Positions 46,408-52,612 of a stretch of 64,000 nucleotides of DNA are shown piece after piece. A model generated the notes under the pieces. It worked only from the letters and a program-made list of their open reading frames with translations, ran no database searches and was not told the origin of the DNA. Source of the stretch: Escherichia coli (GTDB lineage: Bacteria > Pseudomonadota > Gammaproteobacteria > Enterobacterales > Enterobacteriaceae); NCBI RefSeq assembly GCF_044324785.1, contig NZ_CP172127.1; one strand, given 5' to 3'. Made by a program: the position numbers and the translations under genes. Each line of letters opens with the position of its first letter. The stretch's first letter is position 1.

Positions 46408-47645
46408 AATGTAGCTGGCGCGAAGGCAATAAGATCCAGTTGCTGGAAAACGGCGAGCAATATTATCCCGCGGTGTTTAAGGCGATTGGCGAGGCACAAG
46501 AACGCATCATTCTTGAAACGTTTATCTGGTTTGAGGATGACGTCGGCAAACAGCTGCATGCGGCGCTACTGGCAGCAGCGCAACGCGGGGTAAAAGCGGA
46601 AGTCTTGCTGGATGGCTACGGTTCGCCGGATCTCAGCGATGAGTTTGTCAATGAACTGACGGCAGCTGGCGTGGTGTTCCGCTACTACGATCCCCGCCCT
46701 CGCCTTTTTGGTATGCGCACCAATGTGTTTCGCCGGATGCATCGCAAAATTGTGGTGATCGACGCGCGTATTGCCTTTATTGGCGGGTTGAACTACTCCG
46801 CCGAGCATATGTCCAGCTACGGTCCGGAGGCTAAACAGGATTACGCGGTACGCCTCGAAGGGCCGATTGTCGAAGATATTCTCCAGTTTGAGCTGGAAAA
46901 CTTGCCAGGACAAAGCGCGGCACGACGCTGGTGGCGACGTCATCATAAAGCGGAAGAAAATCGCCAGCCGGGAGAAGCGCAGGTATTGCTGGTCTGGCGC
47001 GATAACGAAGAACATCGCGATGATATCGAACGCCACTATCTGAAAATGCTCACTCAGGCGCGGCGGGAAGTGATTATCGCCAACGCCTACTTCTTCCCCG
47101 GCTATCGATTTTTACACGCCTTGCGTAAAGCGGCACGGCGCGGGGTGCGGATCAAACTGATCATTCAGGGCGAACCGGATATGCCGATTGTCAGAGTCGG
47201 TGCACGCTTGCTGTATAACTATCTGGTTAAAGGCGGCGTTCAGGTGTTTGAGTACCGCCGCCGTCCGCTACATGGCAAAGTGGCATTGATGGACGATCAC
47301 TGGGCGACGGTAGGGTCCAGTAATCTCGATCCGCTCAGTTTGTCACTGAATCTCGAAGCAAATGTCATCATCCACGATCGTCATTTTAACCAGACGCTGC
47401 GTGATAATCTGAACGGCATTATCGCCGCAGACTGCCAGCAGGTGGATGAAACCATGCTGCCCAAACGCACCTGGTGGAATCTGACCAAAAGCGTGCTGGC
47501 GTTCCACTTTTTACGCCACTTCCCGGCGCTGGTCGGCTGGCTTCCGGCACACACACCACGTCTGGCGCAGGTTGACCCGCCCGCTCAGCCGACAATGGAA
47601 ACGCAGGATCGGGTAGAAACTGAAAACACGGGGGTAAAACCCTGA
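46404..47645 (+). CDS. clsB: cardiolipin synthase B (phospholipase D family)
   Basis: 413 aa; two HKD motifs ([16 protein letters not shown]). Confidence 0.9.
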
Positions 47646-48601
47646 TGAGTAAATCACACCCGCGCTGGCGCTTAGCAAAGAAGATCCTCACCTGGCTGTT
47701 TTTTATCGCGGTGATTGTGTTGCTGGTGGTCTACGCCAAAAAGGTGGACTGGGAAGAGGTCTGGAAGGTCATCCGCGACTACAATCGCGTTGCGCTGCTT
47801 AGTGCGGTCGGGCTGGTGGTCGTCAGTTATCTGATTTACGGCTGCTATGACCTGCTCGCCCGCTTTTACTGCGGTCACAAACTGGCGAAGCGCCAGGTGA
47901 TGCTGGTGTCGTTTATCTGCTACGCCTTCAACCTGACGCTCAGTACCTGGGTCGGCGGCATTGGTATGCGCTATCGTTTGTACTCCCGGCTAGGGTTACC
48001 GGGCAGCACCATTACGCGGATTTTCTCGCTGAGTATTACCACCAACTGGCTGGGCTATATTTTACTGGCGGGGATTATCTTTACCGCGGGCGTGGTGGAG
48101 CTGCCGGATCACTGGTATGTCGATCAAACTACACTGCGTATTCTCGGCATTGGCTTATTGATGATTATCGCGGTTTATTTGTGGTTTTGCGCTTTCGCGA
48201 AGCACCGCCATATGACCATCAAAGGGCAAAAACTGGTGCTGCCTTCATGGAAATTTGCCCTCGCCCAGATGCTGATTTCCAGCGTTAACTGGATGGTAAT
48301 GGGAGCGATTATCTGGCTGTTACTCGGTCAAAGCGTAAACTATTTCTTTGTACTGGGTGTGTTGCTGGTTAGTAGCATTGCTGGCGTCATCGTGCATATT
48401 CCGGCGGGAATTGGTGTGCTGGAAGCGGTATTTATCGCGCTACTGGCTGGGGAGCATACCTCCAAAGGCACAATTATCGCCGCCCTGCTCGCTTACCGTG
48501 TGCTGTATTACTTTATCCCACTGCTGCTGGCGCTGATCTGTTACCTGCTACTGGAAAGTCAGGCGAAGAAGCTACGGGCGAAAAATGAAGCGGCGATGTG
48601 A
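47645..48601 (+). CDS. ybhN: inner membrane protein YbhN
   Basis: 318 aa polytopic membrane protein; overlaps clsB stop. Confidence 0.85.
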   Translation: MSKSHPRWRLAKKILTWLFFIAVIVLLVVYAKKVDWEEVWKVIRDYNRVALLSAVGLVVVSYLIYGCYDLLARFYCGHKLAKRQVMLVSFICYAFNLTLSTWVGGIGMRYRLYSRLGLPGSTITRIFSLSITTNWLGYILLAGIIFTAGVVELPDHWYVDQTTLRILGIGLLMIIAVYLWFCAFAKHRHMTIKGQKLVLPSWKFALAQMLISSVNWMVMGAIIWLLLGQSVNYFFVLGVLLVSSIAGVIVHIPAGIGVLEAVFIALLAGEHTSKGTIIAALLAYRVLYYFIPLLLALICYLLLESQAKKLRAKNEAAM

Positions 48602-48636
48602 AGTTTAGTTAAGTTCTTTAGTATGTGCATTTACGA

Positions 48637-49086
48637 CTAATGAAAAAAACGCGTATGCCTTTGCCAGACAAGCGTTATCGCTATTGCTGCAAGAATCCCA
48701 AAGAAGCCGATAAAATAGTAATAGAGTGTTAATGCACCTGTAACAGCGCAACGAACCGGACTCCACAATTCTTCGCTATGGCATTTTCCTGCCAGTTCAA
48801 GGAGCTTATTTCGTCCATGCGAGATAATGCCTGACCATAAAACAATCATTAAGCAACTTATTACCCAAATGGGCCGTTCACTCATTAATGCGGCATTCAC
48901 GATGATCACCAGGGCCAACCCTGTCAACGTCATCATAATGATAAAACGGTGAGAACCAGGATCAACATTAAATAATAAACCGGCCAGCATACTGATTAAA
49001 AACATCGCGCCCGCAGTGCTGAACACAAGGATAATGGCAGATACAGGAAGTGACTGCTCCCCGTCCTGTCGGGCGAGGCTTCCCAC
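48637..49086 (-). pseudogene. ybhM: ybhM (BAX-inhibitor/YccA family), C-terminal fragment; upper boundary approximate (about 49030)
   Basis: Minus-strand ORF whose TM-rich sequence continues the N-terminal fragment at 50769..51113; separated from it by the tnpA/tnpB element. Confidence 0.65.
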
Positions 49087-49089
49087 TTC

Positions 49090-50259
49090 TTAAGCCGCAA
49101 CCGTCTGTGTGACGGATTTATGCTGGCCTCCATGGGCAGAAACGACGAGTCCCGCCGCTTGTAATTCCAGTATGCCCTTGCGTTTGATGTTGAGCGCCGC
49201 GTTGATATCGCGGTCATGTTCAACTCCACACTCTGGACACTGCCAGATGCGCTTACGTAATGGCATCTCCGACATTTTGTGACCGCAGCAGTGGCAGGTT
49301 TTCGAACTGGCGAACCATTGATCCAGTTTCACCAGATGCACACCTTTCTCTGCTGCTTTATATTCCAGTTTTGTGATGAATCCAGACCATCCAGCATCGC
49401 CTATCGCACGAGCCAGATGGTGATTTTTCATCATATTTGCCGTTTTCAATTTCTCGACAATTACCGCTTGGTTTTCGTCAACAATTGCGCGAGATAACTT
49501 GTGCTGGAAATCGGCACGGGCACTGGCTACCCGTTCGTGAACGGCTGCAAGTTGTATTCTGGCTTTGCGCCTGTTTGCGCTCCCTTTTTTCTTACGGGAC
49601 AGTGCTTTCTGCTTCCGGCGCAGGTTGCGACTTGCATTGATTAGGTGGCGGGGACTGGCAATTTTATTGCCGTCCGATTTGATGACAAAATGCGCCAGCC
49701 CCATATCCAGCCCTGTCACATTTGATATCAGTGCGGGCTTTGCCGGCGCTTCCATCCCGTCGTCACAGAGTAACGACGCGTAGTATTTCCCGGTTGCGCT
49801 GCGGCTCAACGTGATACTTTTCAGCATTCCCGTAATTTCACGATGTAAACGCGCTTCAATCGGCAAGATTTTCGGTATTTTTATCGCACCATCAAGGACT
49901 TTTATGCCAACACAATGATAGCTCGATTGTCTGCCGTGTTTACTTTTAAAGGTAGGTTTACCTGCTTTCAGTTTCGGATTGAAAAAGTTAGAAAAAGCCA
50001 CGTCGAGGTTAATTACCGCCTGCTGCAACGCAATAGAATCATATTCTTTAAGCCATCCATACCGGCGGGATTTCTTCGCCACTGCAAGCAGTGGTTTGAG
50101 GTCTTTACGCGGGTTTAAATTTACGCGGTGCCGCTGGTAAGAATGTTTCTTGATATGCAGAGCTTTGTTGTACGCAAAACGCACTGCACCGAACTGGGCG
50201 TTGATAAATTCAGCCTGTTCTGGTGTCGGGTAGATGCGTACTTTTGTTGCTCTTAACAT
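49090..50259 (-). CDS. tnpB: TnpB (IS605-family OrfB; RuvC-like RNA-guided endonuclease)
   Basis: 389 aa; RuvC-I GLDMG, zinc finger CHCCG...CPECG, RuvC-III HDRDINAALN; apparently intact. Confidence 0.85.
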   Translation of the reverse strand: MLRATKVRIYPTPEQAEFINAQFGAVRFAYNKALHIKKHSYQRHRVNLNPRKDLKPLLAVAKKSRRYGWLKEYDSIALQQAVINLDVAFSNFFNPKLKAGKPTFKSKHGRQSSYHCVGIKVLDGAIKIPKILPIEARLHREITGMLKSITLSRSATGKYYASLLCDDGMEAPAKPALISNVTGLDMGLAHFVIKSDGNKIASPRHLINASRNLRRKQKALSRKKKGSANRRKARIQLAAVHERVASARADFQHKLSRAIVDENQAVIVEKLKTANMMKNHHLARAIGDAGWSGFITKLEYKAAEKGVHLVKLDQWFASSKTCHCCGHKMSEMPLRKRIWQCPECGVEHDRDINAALNIKRKGILELQAAGLVVSAHGGQHKSVTQTVAA

Positions 50260-50315
50260 AATCAGCGCTCATTGATATAATGCTTTTATTTTAACACTTT
50301 AGGTGAATATATCAA

Positions 50316-50741
50316 TTGAGTAATCATGATGATTTACTGGCGGGATTTCTCCGCAAACGACACAGTGTCAGTAAGCTGGTTGTGCACCTTATTTTTACGA
50401 CAAAGTATCGACGCAAACTATTCGACAGTCAGATGATCGCTCAGTTGCGTGAGGCTTTTGGCTCCGCTGCGGCAAAGCTTGAATGCGAAATTATTGAGAT
50501 GGACGGGGAGCCAGACCATGTACACCTGCTGGTGGCCTACCCGCCAAAACTGGCGGTCAGTGTGATGGTCAATAATTTAAAATCGGTATCATCACGTTTG
50601 CTACGCCAGCAGAACGCGCATTTACGTATGCAGAGTAAAACGGGGCTTTTGTGGTCGAGATCGTACTTTGTCTGTAGCACCGGAGGGGCAACGATTGAAA
50701 CGCTCAGAGCCTACGTTCAGAGTCAGTCAACACCTGATTGA
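50316..50741 (+). CDS. tnpA: IS200/IS605-family transposase TnpA (Y1/HUH)
   Basis: 141 aa; HUH motif HVHLLV; C-terminal Tyr in RAYVQSQ. Confidence 0.85.
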   Translation: MSNHDDLLAGFLRKRHSVSKLVVHLIFTTKYRRKLFDSQMIAQLREAFGSAAAKLECEIIEMDGEPDHVHLLVAYPPKLAVSVMVNNLKSVSSRLLRQQNAHLRMQSKTGLLWSRSYFVCSTGGATIETLRAYVQSQSTPD

Positions 50742-50768
50742 TCTTTAAAGCCCTGCGGGCTTTTCGCC

Positions 50769-51113
50769 TTATATCCCCGCCCGCATTGGGCGAGGGTTTA
50801 CGGCGTTTTTCGCTAAACTTGCAACGACAATCGCCACCAAAGAGAGTAAAAACAGATATATTACGCCTGCGATGGCGGCATTTATCTTGTTGATATCCTT
50901 ACTTAAGCCATACATACAAAGTAATAATAACCCTATGGCGACATACATTGGTGGTGAATCATATTTGGTTGCCGTAATTTCGAGATACTTAGCTCCCCAG
51001 GCCAGTCCTGCGGTTGCCACCAAACCTAAAGCGGTAATGAGCCATATACCGTTTAATATCCTGGCCTCGTGCTGAAAATCTAATTTATTGCTGTTTTGCG
51101 AGTATGATTCCAT
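50769..51113 (-). pseudogene. ybhM: ybhM N-terminal fragment; the reading frame runs into the IS end and stops
   Basis: ORF 50769..51140 (-); start MESYSQNSNKLDF at 51113; last codons (NPRPMRAGI) overlie the IS subterminal hairpins. Confidence 0.65.
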
Positions 51114-51318
51114 TCTTTTAGTTGTCCTTAGAAAAAACATTAATATTTACCATCAATAAATTTAAAGCCACGCATACAAAATACTTTTTTATTTATGGAT
51201 ACGGAAAACGCTTCCGCTCGCTCATAAGGCATATTTTATACCTGGTACTTGTTAAGTGTCGTTTTTTCGTAAGAAAAAATCCCGACACATGGCCGGGATA
51301 TTGATGGTGAAAAAAGAA

Positions 51319-52023
51319 TTAACGGCGGTTGCCGAAGATCCGCAGCAACATCAGGAACAGGTTGATGAAGTCCAGATACAAGGTTAACGCGCCAAGAATG
51401 GAATATTTGCGCAGGTTCGACGTGTCGCGGGTATCAATCTGCTCACCCATATTTTTCAGTTTCTGCGTGTCATACGCCGTCAATCCGACAAAGACAATCA
51501 CGCCGATGTAGGTGACTGCCCACATCAATGCTTCGCTTTTCAGCCAGAAGTTGACCAACGATGCCAGCACAATGCCGATTAACGCCATAAACAGCATATT
51601 GCCAAAGCCGCTTAGATCGCGCTTCGTGGTGTAACCGTACAGGCTCATTGCGCCAAACATCCCGGCAGTAACGACGAAAGTACTGGCGATAGAAGCAGCG
51701 GTATAGACAATGAAAATACTGGAAAGCGTAAGACCCGTCAGCGCCGAATAAAGCATAAAGAGCATCGTCGTCACACCTGCGCTCAGCTTTTGAATCATCG
51801 CTGATAACACAATAACCAATGCTAATTGCGCGATGATCAGACCGATTAAAAAGACACGGTTAGTGAACAACAGCTCCATCACGGCCGCGGAATTAGCCGC
51901 ATACCAGGCAACAAATGCGGTCAGCAACAAGCCAACGGTCATCCAGCCATAGACTTGCGCCATATAAGTTTGCAAGCCAGCCCGGGGTTGTACAATTGAA
52001 TCAGAACGTGGGAATCTGTCCAT
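51319..52023 (-). CDS. ybhL: BAX-inhibitor/YccA-family inner membrane protein YbhL
   Basis: ORF 51319..52104 (-); start MDRFPRSDSIVQ at 52023 (234 aa). Confidence 0.85.
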   Translation of the reverse strand: MDRFPRSDSIVQPRAGLQTYMAQVYGWMTVGLLLTAFVAWYAANSAAVMELLFTNRVFLIGLIIAQLALVIVLSAMIQKLSAGVTTMLFMLYSALTGLTLSSIFIVYTAASIASTFVVTAGMFGAMSLYGYTTKRDLSGFGNMLFMALIGIVLASLVNFWLKSEALMWAVTYIGVIVFVGLTAYDTQKLKNMGEQIDTRDTSNLRKYSILGALTLYLDFINLFLMLLRIFGNRR

Positions 52024-52122
52024 GATGATCTCCTGAAGATATAAGGAATATCTTAAGGATACTGCAAAATGATGAGGCTGTGCATCGACGCAGCGTAAAC
52101 GCATGTACTGAGCGGTGAAATT

Positions 52123-52153
52123 GCCGGACGCAGCGGTGCCTTATCCGGCTAAC
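52123..52153. repeat. REP (repetitive extragenic palindromic) element downstream of moaE
   Basis: gccggacgcagcggtgccttatccggctaac closely matches the REP consensus. Confidence 0.7.
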
Positions 52154-52159
52154 AAAAAA

Positions 52160-52612
52160 CTACCAGCGTTTTGCCGCCTGCTGATCGCTCTCCCGAGCTT
52201 CAACCCAGCGGTCGCCTTCCGGCGTGGCTTCACGCTTCCAGAACGGTGCGCGGGTTTTGAGATAATCCATAATAAACTGCCCGGCTTCAAACGCACTGCT
52301 GCGATGCGCACTGGTGACACCGACAAAAACGATTTCATCTCCCGGCCATAATTCCCCGATGCGGTGAATCACCGTGACGCGCCCCAGCGGCCAGCGGTTA
52401 CGCGCTTCATCGACAATTTCTGCCAGTGCTTTTTCAGTCATCCCCGGATAGTGTTCGAGGGTTAATGCTTTGACGCTGTCGCCAAGGTTATGGTTGCGCA
52501 CCTTACCGGTAAAGGTGACTACCGCACCGTCTTCATCACGCTCCGCCAGCCACGGATACTCTTCTCCTACGCTGAATGGCTGCGGGCCGACAACAATTTT
52601 GGTTTCTGCCAT
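52160..52612 (-). CDS. moaE: molybdopterin synthase catalytic subunit MoaE
   Basis: 150 aa recognised as MoaE. Confidence 0.9.
   Translation of the reverse strand: MAETKIVVGPQPFSVGEEYPWLAERDEDGAVVTFTGKVRNHNLGDSVKALTLEHYPGMTEKALAEIVDEARNRWPLGRVTVIHRIGELWPGDEIVFVGVTSAHRSSAFEAGQFIMDYLKTRAPFWKREATPEGDRWVEARESDQQAAKRW

Follow-up and report, generated by a model that had tools for sequence, protein, structure and literature searches.

A complete copy of ISEc46 in Escherichia coli ybhM and its predicted TnpB-omega RNA system

The ISEc46 insertion in ybhM

The stretch analyzed here, referred to as the window, comprises 64,000 nucleotides of the Escherichia coli contig NZ_CP172127.1 (assembly GCF_044324785.1), in which the gene ybhM is interrupted by an insertion sequence of the IS200/IS605 family. 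Judged by its sequence, the insert is a complete copy of ISEc46, an element already catalogued in E. coli, and it carries tnpA, a divergent tnpB and a predicted omega RNA that overlaps the 3′ end of tnpB. The gene order on the chromosome around the insert is clsB-ybhN-ybhM-ybhL-moaEDC. The principal features of the locus are the following.

48637..49049, minus strand: 3′ part of the interrupted ybhM, collinear with the intact ybhM of strain AST215
49034..49049, minus strand: predicted 16-nt guide TTCCTGTATCTGCCAT, ybhM sequence beside the right end, which stops at 49050
49050..49167, minus strand: predicted scaffold of the omega RNA, 118 nt long according to the covariance model, with a paired core at 49160-49059 (RNAalifold, pair counts, covariance model)
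49090..50259, minus strand: tnpB, 389 amino acids, ATG start, TAA stop (open reading frame, Pfam, NCBIfam, alignment to the solved ISDra2 TnpB)
50813..50816, minus strand: TTAG target site, predicted transposon-adjacent motif (TAM), part of ybhM (empty-site comparison)
50813..51140, minus strand: 5′ part of the interrupted ybhM (comparison with intact ybhM)

The window flanks were compared with 5426 complete RefSeq E. coli genomes, among which the best identity is 98.4%. In strain AST215, which has an intact ybhM, window positions 48600-49049 and 50813-51200 adjoin without a gap, and because the two flanks are contiguous there, the interrupting DNA can be delimited as 49050-50812 (1763 bp). 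Over 1767 bp, this insert has 99.7% identity to copies that RefSeq calls 'IS200/IS605-like element ISEc46', from whose annotation the name is taken, and it shares their gene order and ends. A near full-length copy is present in 455 of the 5426 complete genomes, most commonly in a gene for an IclR-family regulator, and none of the 5426 has the insertion in ybhM.

Ends and target site of the element

To define the ends, relatives were collected by a genome-wide scan that yielded 80 loci encoding homologues of 62-99% identity, in Photorhabdus, Xenorhabdus, Serratia, Rahnella, Klebsiella, Pantoea, Vibrio, Shewanella, Idiomarina, Marinospirillum and other genera. In nearly all of these relatives, similarity at the right end stops exactly at the base equivalent to 49050 and the flanks beyond are unrelated; the right ends read ...GAAGUGGGAAGCCUCGCC-loop-GGCGGGGAGCAGUCAC, with ...GAGCAGUCAC as the final bases. 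The opposite boundary is formed by the left end (LE).

50750..50812, minus strand: LE with a subterminal imperfect hairpin (similarity to other copies begins exactly there; DNA fold)

TTAG precedes the LE at about 60 unrelated insertion sites from many genera, with no conservation farther upstream. In the window, positions 50813-50816 read CTAA on the plus strand and TTAG on the minus strand, and this is the single TTAG of the intact ybhM, where it is followed at once by the right-end flank; the insertion took place without target-site duplication. When the empty site is reconstructed, it reads TTAG and then TTCCTGTATCTGCCAT, and ybhM of AST215 (20/20) and of GF60 (60/60) carries it intact. 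Subterminal imperfect hairpins lie at both ends (LE, 50795-50775; right end, 49078-49059), and terminal inverted repeats are absent. In the LE hairpin, CCTCGCCC (50795-50788) pairs with GGGCGGGG (50782-50775), a stem sequence identical to that of the right-end hairpin. A hallmark of IS200/IS605 elements is that they insert 3′ of a tetranucleotide and leave no duplication. A scan of the whole window found no additional left or right ends.

In characterized relatives, the sequence targeted by TnpA doubles as the TAM of TnpB (PMC8612924; bioRxiv 10.1101/2023.03.14.532601). By analogy, TTAG is predicted to be the TAM of ISEc46 TnpB; the literature search turned up no report of a TTAG TAM.

The TnpB protein

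An earlier note, made from the letters of the window, had described a TnpB of 389 amino acids that retains the RuvC segments and the zinc finger, and the open reading frame at 49090-50259 (minus strand) agrees with this description. The protein has a WED/REC-RuvC-TNB architecture with a D-E-D catalytic triad and a four-cysteine (CCCC) zinc finger, and contains the Pfam domains HTH_OrfB_IS605, OrfB_IS605 and Cas12f1-like_TNB. It scores 341 bits against NCBIfam NF040570 'RNA-guided endonuclease TnpB' (cut-off 100), and RefSeq already labels it an RNA-guided endonuclease, an annotation which, like the ISEc46 identity, was missing from the earlier note. Residues 4-380 align with ISDra2 TnpB (8exa/8h1j/8bf8) at E=6e-75 and about 40% identity. 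Mapped through this alignment, D185, E269 and D351 correspond to the RuvC triad D191, E278 and D361 of ISDra2, while C322, C325, C341 and C344 correspond to the zinc ligands C331, C334, C351 and C354; the roles of these residues in ISDra2 are described in PMC10097598. All seven key residues thus match, and the alignment shows no inactivating RuvC substitution at D185, E269 or D351. The same seven residues are unchanged in 15 homologues (76-90% identity). Over codons 1-366 of tnpB, the ratio of non-synonymous to synonymous substitution rates (dN/dS) is 0.05-0.10 against 57 homologous genes, and by this measure the TnpB family is under strong purifying selection.

A covarying RNA structure at the 3′ end of tnpB

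To search for a guide RNA scaffold, 57 distinct elements from many gamma-proteobacterial genera were aligned over their last 230 nt and folded with RNAalifold, which returned five nested helices within the last 111 nt of the element. All helices lie on the minus strand.

49140..49160: stem 1, 49160-49154 with 49146-49140, 7 pairs, 4 of them with compensatory change
49082..49136: stem 2, 49136-49132 with 49086-49082, enclosing stems 3a and 3b (pair counts)
49128-49122 with 49098-49093: stem 3a (pair counts)
49115-49111 with 49105-49101: stem 3b (pair counts)
49078-49071 with 49066-49059: stem 4, the right-end subterminal hairpin, tetraloop GACA (pair counts, fold)

Among the 30 pairs counted, 98.4% of cells hold standard pairs, compared with 89.7% in shuffled alignments and 35-57% in controls that slide the 3′ partner by 1-3 columns. 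Changes on both sides of a pair, which are compensatory, occur in 17 of the 30 (9.6 in shuffles, 4-8 in the slid controls), and not one of 500 shuffles reaches any of the five pairing measures. Stems 1-3 contribute 15 covarying pairs out of 23, all inside the tnpB reading frame and beyond the subterminal hairpin; within them, stems 2, 3a and 3b together make up 16 pairs, 11 with compensatory change, and 98-99.6% of their cells are paired. At the ends of IS200/IS605 elements, TnpA is known to recognize the subterminal hairpin.

The loop of stem 1 (GGGACUC) offers a candidate pseudoknot, GACU/AGUC, between 49151-49148 and 49055-49052, which places AGUC at -6..-3 from the guide junction. Two further RNAalifold helices were set aside: a long-range GAC/GUC helix (columns 68-70 with 245-247) is invariant and its 3′ GUC better fits the candidate pseudoknot with the stem 1 loop, for which ISDra2 is the precedent, and a 2-bp helix (columns 86-87 with 108-109) was dropped as invariant. 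Counted from the guide junction, the helices span -111/-91 (stem 1), -102..-99/-6..-3 (pseudoknot), -87/-33 (stem 2), -79/-44 (stem 3a), -66/-52 (stem 3b) and -29/-10 (stem 4). In the omega RNA of ISDra2 solved by cryo-electron microscopy, the positions are -116..-111/-91..-86 (stem 1), -105..-103/-5..-3 (pseudoknot), -84..-81/-35..-32 (stem 2), -77..-71/-48..-42 (stem 3a), -70..-49 (stem 3b) and -20..-17 (tetraloop of stem 4) (PMC10097598). Compared in this way, the ISEc46 model and the ISDra2 architecture coincide nearly position for position.

A covariance model (R1) was built from 42 relatives, with the window copy and near-identical copies excluded. It matches 49167-49050 on the minus strand at full length (128.8 bits, E=6e-28), and this is the sole match in the 64-kb window, which was scanned throughout for orphan omega RNAs. 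The scaffold overlaps codons 367-389 of tnpB and the 40-nt right end. In these codons (49090-49160), synonymous differences among enterobacterial relatives are 2-5 times less frequent than elsewhere in tnpB, which fits dual coding for the protein tail and for stems 1-3 of the omega RNA. The earlier proposal of an omega RNA running from the 3′ end of tnpB through the right end is therefore supported by comparison, through the covariation and the model match. Its strand was right and its position, about 49150-49000, approximate: the scaffold begins at 49167 (paired core at 49160) and ends at 49050, and the predicted guide occupies 49049-49034.

tnpA, the spacer and the genomic setting

Upstream of tnpB, the element carries a transposase gene in divergent orientation and a short spacer with promoter-like sites.

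50316..50741, plus strand: tnpA, Y1 HUH transposase, 141 amino acids, TTG start, divergent from tnpB (NCBIfam, RefSeq)
50253..50315, both strands: divergent promoter-like sites in the tnpA-tnpB spacer (consensus scan, pattern match only)

The tnpA product, which RefSeq names 'IS200/IS605-like element ISEc46 family transposase', scores 141 bits against NCBIfam NF033573 (cut-off 55) and contains the HVH motif and a C-terminal Tyr; the gene has no nucleotide difference from the common ISEc46. The Y1 protein of ISEc46 has been called N-terminally truncated (PMC9956272), which looks like a matter of start-codon annotation, because translation from the TTG start covers positions 3-125 of the 126 in the NF033573 model. 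In the spacer, the plus-strand promoter-like site (50253-50281) reads TTAACA-17-TATAAT, with 11 of 12 consensus positions, and the minus-strand site (50315-50288) reads TTGATA-16-TAAAAT, with 10 of 12; each has an extended -10 TG. Directly after the tnpA stop codon and inside the LE, a short hairpin, GCCC-TGC-GGGC, followed by TTTT lies at 50750-50768 (plus strand). It could be the tnpA terminator, and its stem is too short to be reported by the terminator scan.

Plus-strand GC skew is negative in 7 of the 8 consecutive 8-kb segments of positions 1-64000, and the minus strand, which is the top strand of the element, is therefore the lagging-strand template. Location of the top strand on the lagging-strand template is the orientation expected of IS200/IS605 elements. 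AST215 itself carries an independent ISEc46 between ybhL and moaE (locus L001, 3287-5053, NZ_AP043621.1), about 1.3 kb from the ybhM site of the window, in the same orientation as the window copy and likewise after TTAG; the ybhL-moaE and ybhM insertions are two separate ISEc46 events in one small neighborhood, in different lineages.

Predicted guide and mode of action

The earlier note had expected a guide matching ybhM, and ybhM sequence does occupy the guide position, the empty ybhM site being TTAG plus this flank. The predicted length of 16 nt follows ISDra2 (PMC8612924), and TTCCTGTATCTGCCAT occurs once in the window. Among relatives, the right-end flanks, which would be the guides, differ at every site. 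By analogy, the ybhM flank is inferred to serve as the guide of this copy.

Transcription, processing and cleavage are modeled on ISDra2 and on Geobacillus elements. In this scheme, tnpB would be transcribed from a promoter in the tnpA-tnpB spacer, and the tnpB transcript or its read-through would give rise to an RNA of about 130-150 nt, as in ISDra2 (PMC8612924). The RNA would consist of the last ~118 nt of the element and ~16 nt of flanking ybhM (49049-49034, TTCCTGTATCTGCCAT), and TnpB together with this omega RNA would act as a single-effector RuvC nuclease. Excision of the top strand by TnpA, as single-stranded DNA, would leave ybhM with a 'donor joint' of TTAG plus TTCCTGTATCTGCCAT; the TnpB-omega RNA complex would then cut the donor joint, and the element would be regained by recombination with the sister copy, by analogy with the relatives described in bioRxiv 10.1101/2023.03.14.532601. 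A terminator-like hairpin with a T-rich tail is located at 49005-49028 (minus strand), 22 nt past the right end, just 3′ of the guide and within the ybhM coding sequence. The number of terminator-like sites in the region is at chance level.

Recent movement of the allele

The exact TnpB protein of the window is recorded in at least 27 contigs, and the ybhM site is shared by at least 21 draft assemblies; GCA_014185105.1 is one example of a strain with the insertion in ybhM. In another assembly (locus L083, GCA_048598525.1, 947-2710), an element identical to the window copy at 1763 of 1763 positions follows a different TTAG, beside hok/gef and DUF968 genes, a site that probably lies in a prophage. 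Because an identical element occupies a second TTAG site, the allele has moved recently, and its weakened right-end hairpin (see below) is accordingly compatible with transposition.

Two other groups of copies were encountered. Locus L085 (GCA_040038515.1, 947-2710) has a left flank of the peptidase S9 type (ptrB-type), as in locus L003, and ybhM as its right flank, with two nucleotide differences, both in the left part; it looks like a recombinant of two ISEc46 copies, which would imply an inversion or deletion. ISEc46-like elements are also found in L003 and L005, contigs labelled as metagenome-assembled genomes of 'Collinsella sp.' and 'Candidatus Paceibacterota', with TnpB proteins 99% and 88% identical to that of the window, respectively; both contigs probably represent enterobacterial DNA that was mis-binned, and not true hosts.

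Interpretation and alternative explanations

We consider it probable, from the sequence evidence, that the insert is a complete and recently mobile ISEc46, located 3′ of TTAG in ybhM, that works as a TnpB-omega RNA system. The stronger proposition, that in native E. coli the TnpB and omega RNA of ISEc46 are fully active as a homing nuclease whose TAM is TTAG and that the allele with K270 and a weak stem 4 is currently spreading, is in our judgment evenly balanced between true and false.

Several observations weigh against the probable reading. The searched literature holds no RNA or cleavage data for ISEc46 or its close relatives; its coverage of ISEc46 consists of resistance-genome surveys and one phylogenetic survey, with no functional study, an ISfinder-wide TnpB screen being outside the search. 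The covariance model search for omega RNA that the earlier note had suggested succeeded with the model built from relatives and failed with the families of Rfam 15, which at E<=1 over 47500-52500 gave no omega RNA family and a single chance snoRNA match elsewhere. The pseudoknot GACU/AGUC is pairable in 93% of cells, and both its sides are invariant, so that it shows no covariation. Folded as a single sequence, the candidate RNA is unremarkable (z = -1.25) and its guide pairs wrongly with sequence farther upstream, for which reasons the comparative structure was used. The movement of the allele is no direct sign of nuclease activity, because TnpB is dispensable for transposition.

The remaining points concern the allele itself, whose private changes had not been noticed in the earlier note. 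The window copy differs from the common ISEc46 by six substitutions: three replace residues of TnpB (T270K, H335R and, in the C-terminal tail, R380H), one is synonymous, one lies 2 nt upstream of the ATG, and the last, G to A at 49064, turns a C-G pair of stem 4 into C.A (49073 with 49064), flagged as non-canonical by the covariance model. T270K adjoins the catalytic E269 at a nearly invariant position of the close family (T in at least 90% of close relatives). The stem 4 change removes a standard pair that 55 of the 57 relatives have and weakens the RNA hairpin by about 7 kcal/mol, to -10.1 in the window copy from -17.3 kcal/mol in the common allele. Three non-synonymous changes to one synonymous, that is, three of the four coding changes, is the expectation under neutral drift.

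These six private substitutions are the basis for the alternative that survives best, which we nevertheless regard as unlikely: that in this ISEc46 copy RNA binding or cleavage is reduced by T270K or by the mismatch in stem 4, which would leave its TnpB-omega RNA impaired or dead, and that TnpA activity and vertical descent alone maintain the copy as a drifting passenger. Characterized TnpBs differ, however, in the residue that follows the catalytic Glu: ISDra2 has H, and 9yyg, an active designed enzyme, has D. R380H falls in a tail that TnpB proteins conserve poorly and that is disordered in ISDra2 (PMC10097598). A Rosenbergiella relative (locus L046) has the same C.A mismatch, the hairpin with the mismatch still folds at -10 kcal/mol, and the identity of the allele at two sites leaves little time for decay.

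The pairing at the 3′ end could, as a second alternative, serve recognition of the right end by TnpA as single-stranded DNA, or act as a 3′ stability element or terminator of the mRNA, and not belong to a guide RNA. Stem 4 shares the stem sequence of the LE hairpin (CCTCGCCC/GGGCGGGG) and is certainly a subterminal hairpin of the TnpA type, and since the same stem occurs in the LE, its conservation cannot distinguish a DNA role from an RNA role. Stems 1-3, on the other hand, sit 33-111 nt inside the element without an LE counterpart, and together with the candidate pseudoknot between the stem 1 loop and the 3′ end they reproduce the helix positions found in the omega RNA of ISDra2 (PMC10097598); stem 4 is not followed by a T-run. 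A DNA-only role is accordingly rejected for stems 1-3, and the alternative as a whole appears very improbable. That TnpB is a domesticated, nuclease-independent regulator (TldR-like) and not a transposon homing nuclease is scarcely credible: exaptations of TnpB are known in Enterobacterales (PMC10705468), but here the RuvC triad is intact, the gene lies between functional-looking ends with an intact tnpA, and in place of the fixed syntenic location with a conserved guide that would mark domestication, which was not seen, the opposite is observed, copy number and location varying by strain and the flanks, hence the guides, differing at each site.

Significance and comparison with known systems

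The locus has little discovery value, because the element is catalogued, its protein already bears the annotation RNA-guided endonuclease, and the mechanism has been established with relatives. A modest gain is that a TnpB clade which has no Rfam family and is widespread in Enterobacterales and other gamma-proteobacteria now has an omega RNA model backed by covariation, together with TTAG as its predicted TAM. A further gain is a natural E. coli lineage with a recently mobile allele, in which TnpB homing could be tested in a native, tractable host. If the system is active and spreading, it could also be asked whether the stem 4 mismatch separates end recognition by TnpA from RNA recognition by TnpB.

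The closest characterized counterpart is the TnpB-omega RNA (reRNA) of ISDra2 from Deinococcus radiodurans (PDB 8exa, 8h1j, 8bf8), whose protein matches ISEc46 TnpB in domain order, RuvC triad and CCCC zinc finger. In both elements, the omega RNA overlaps the 3′ end of tnpB and the right end, and stems 1, 2, 3a, 3b and 4 and the pseudoknot, a candidate one in ISEc46, are similarly spaced from the guide; the UUUA tetraloop of stem 4 in ISDra2 is also present in Photorhabdus relatives of ISEc46. The guide derives from the right-end flank and the TAM equals the TnpA target site in ISDra2, as is predicted for ISEc46. The two systems differ in that ISEc46 TnpB is only ~40% identical (~60% divergence), in that tnpA is divergent in ISEc46 whereas it is co-directional and overlapping in ISDra2, in the target and TAM (the 4-nt TTAG versus TTGAT), and in the loop of stem 1, which has 7 nt in ISEc46 and ~19 nt in ISDra2.

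IS605 and IS606 of Helicobacter pylori also have divergent tnpA and tnpB genes, whereas their sequences and target site differ. Relatives with demonstrated homing share the predicted logic of ISEc46, in which excision rebuilds a joint of the TAM and the right-end flank that matches the guide, and homing is predicted for ISEc46; their hosts and sequences are unrelated to it. Within this range of known elements, ISEc46 is best described, from its protein and RNA features, as a putative IS200/IS605 TnpB-omega RNA system of the ISDra2 type.

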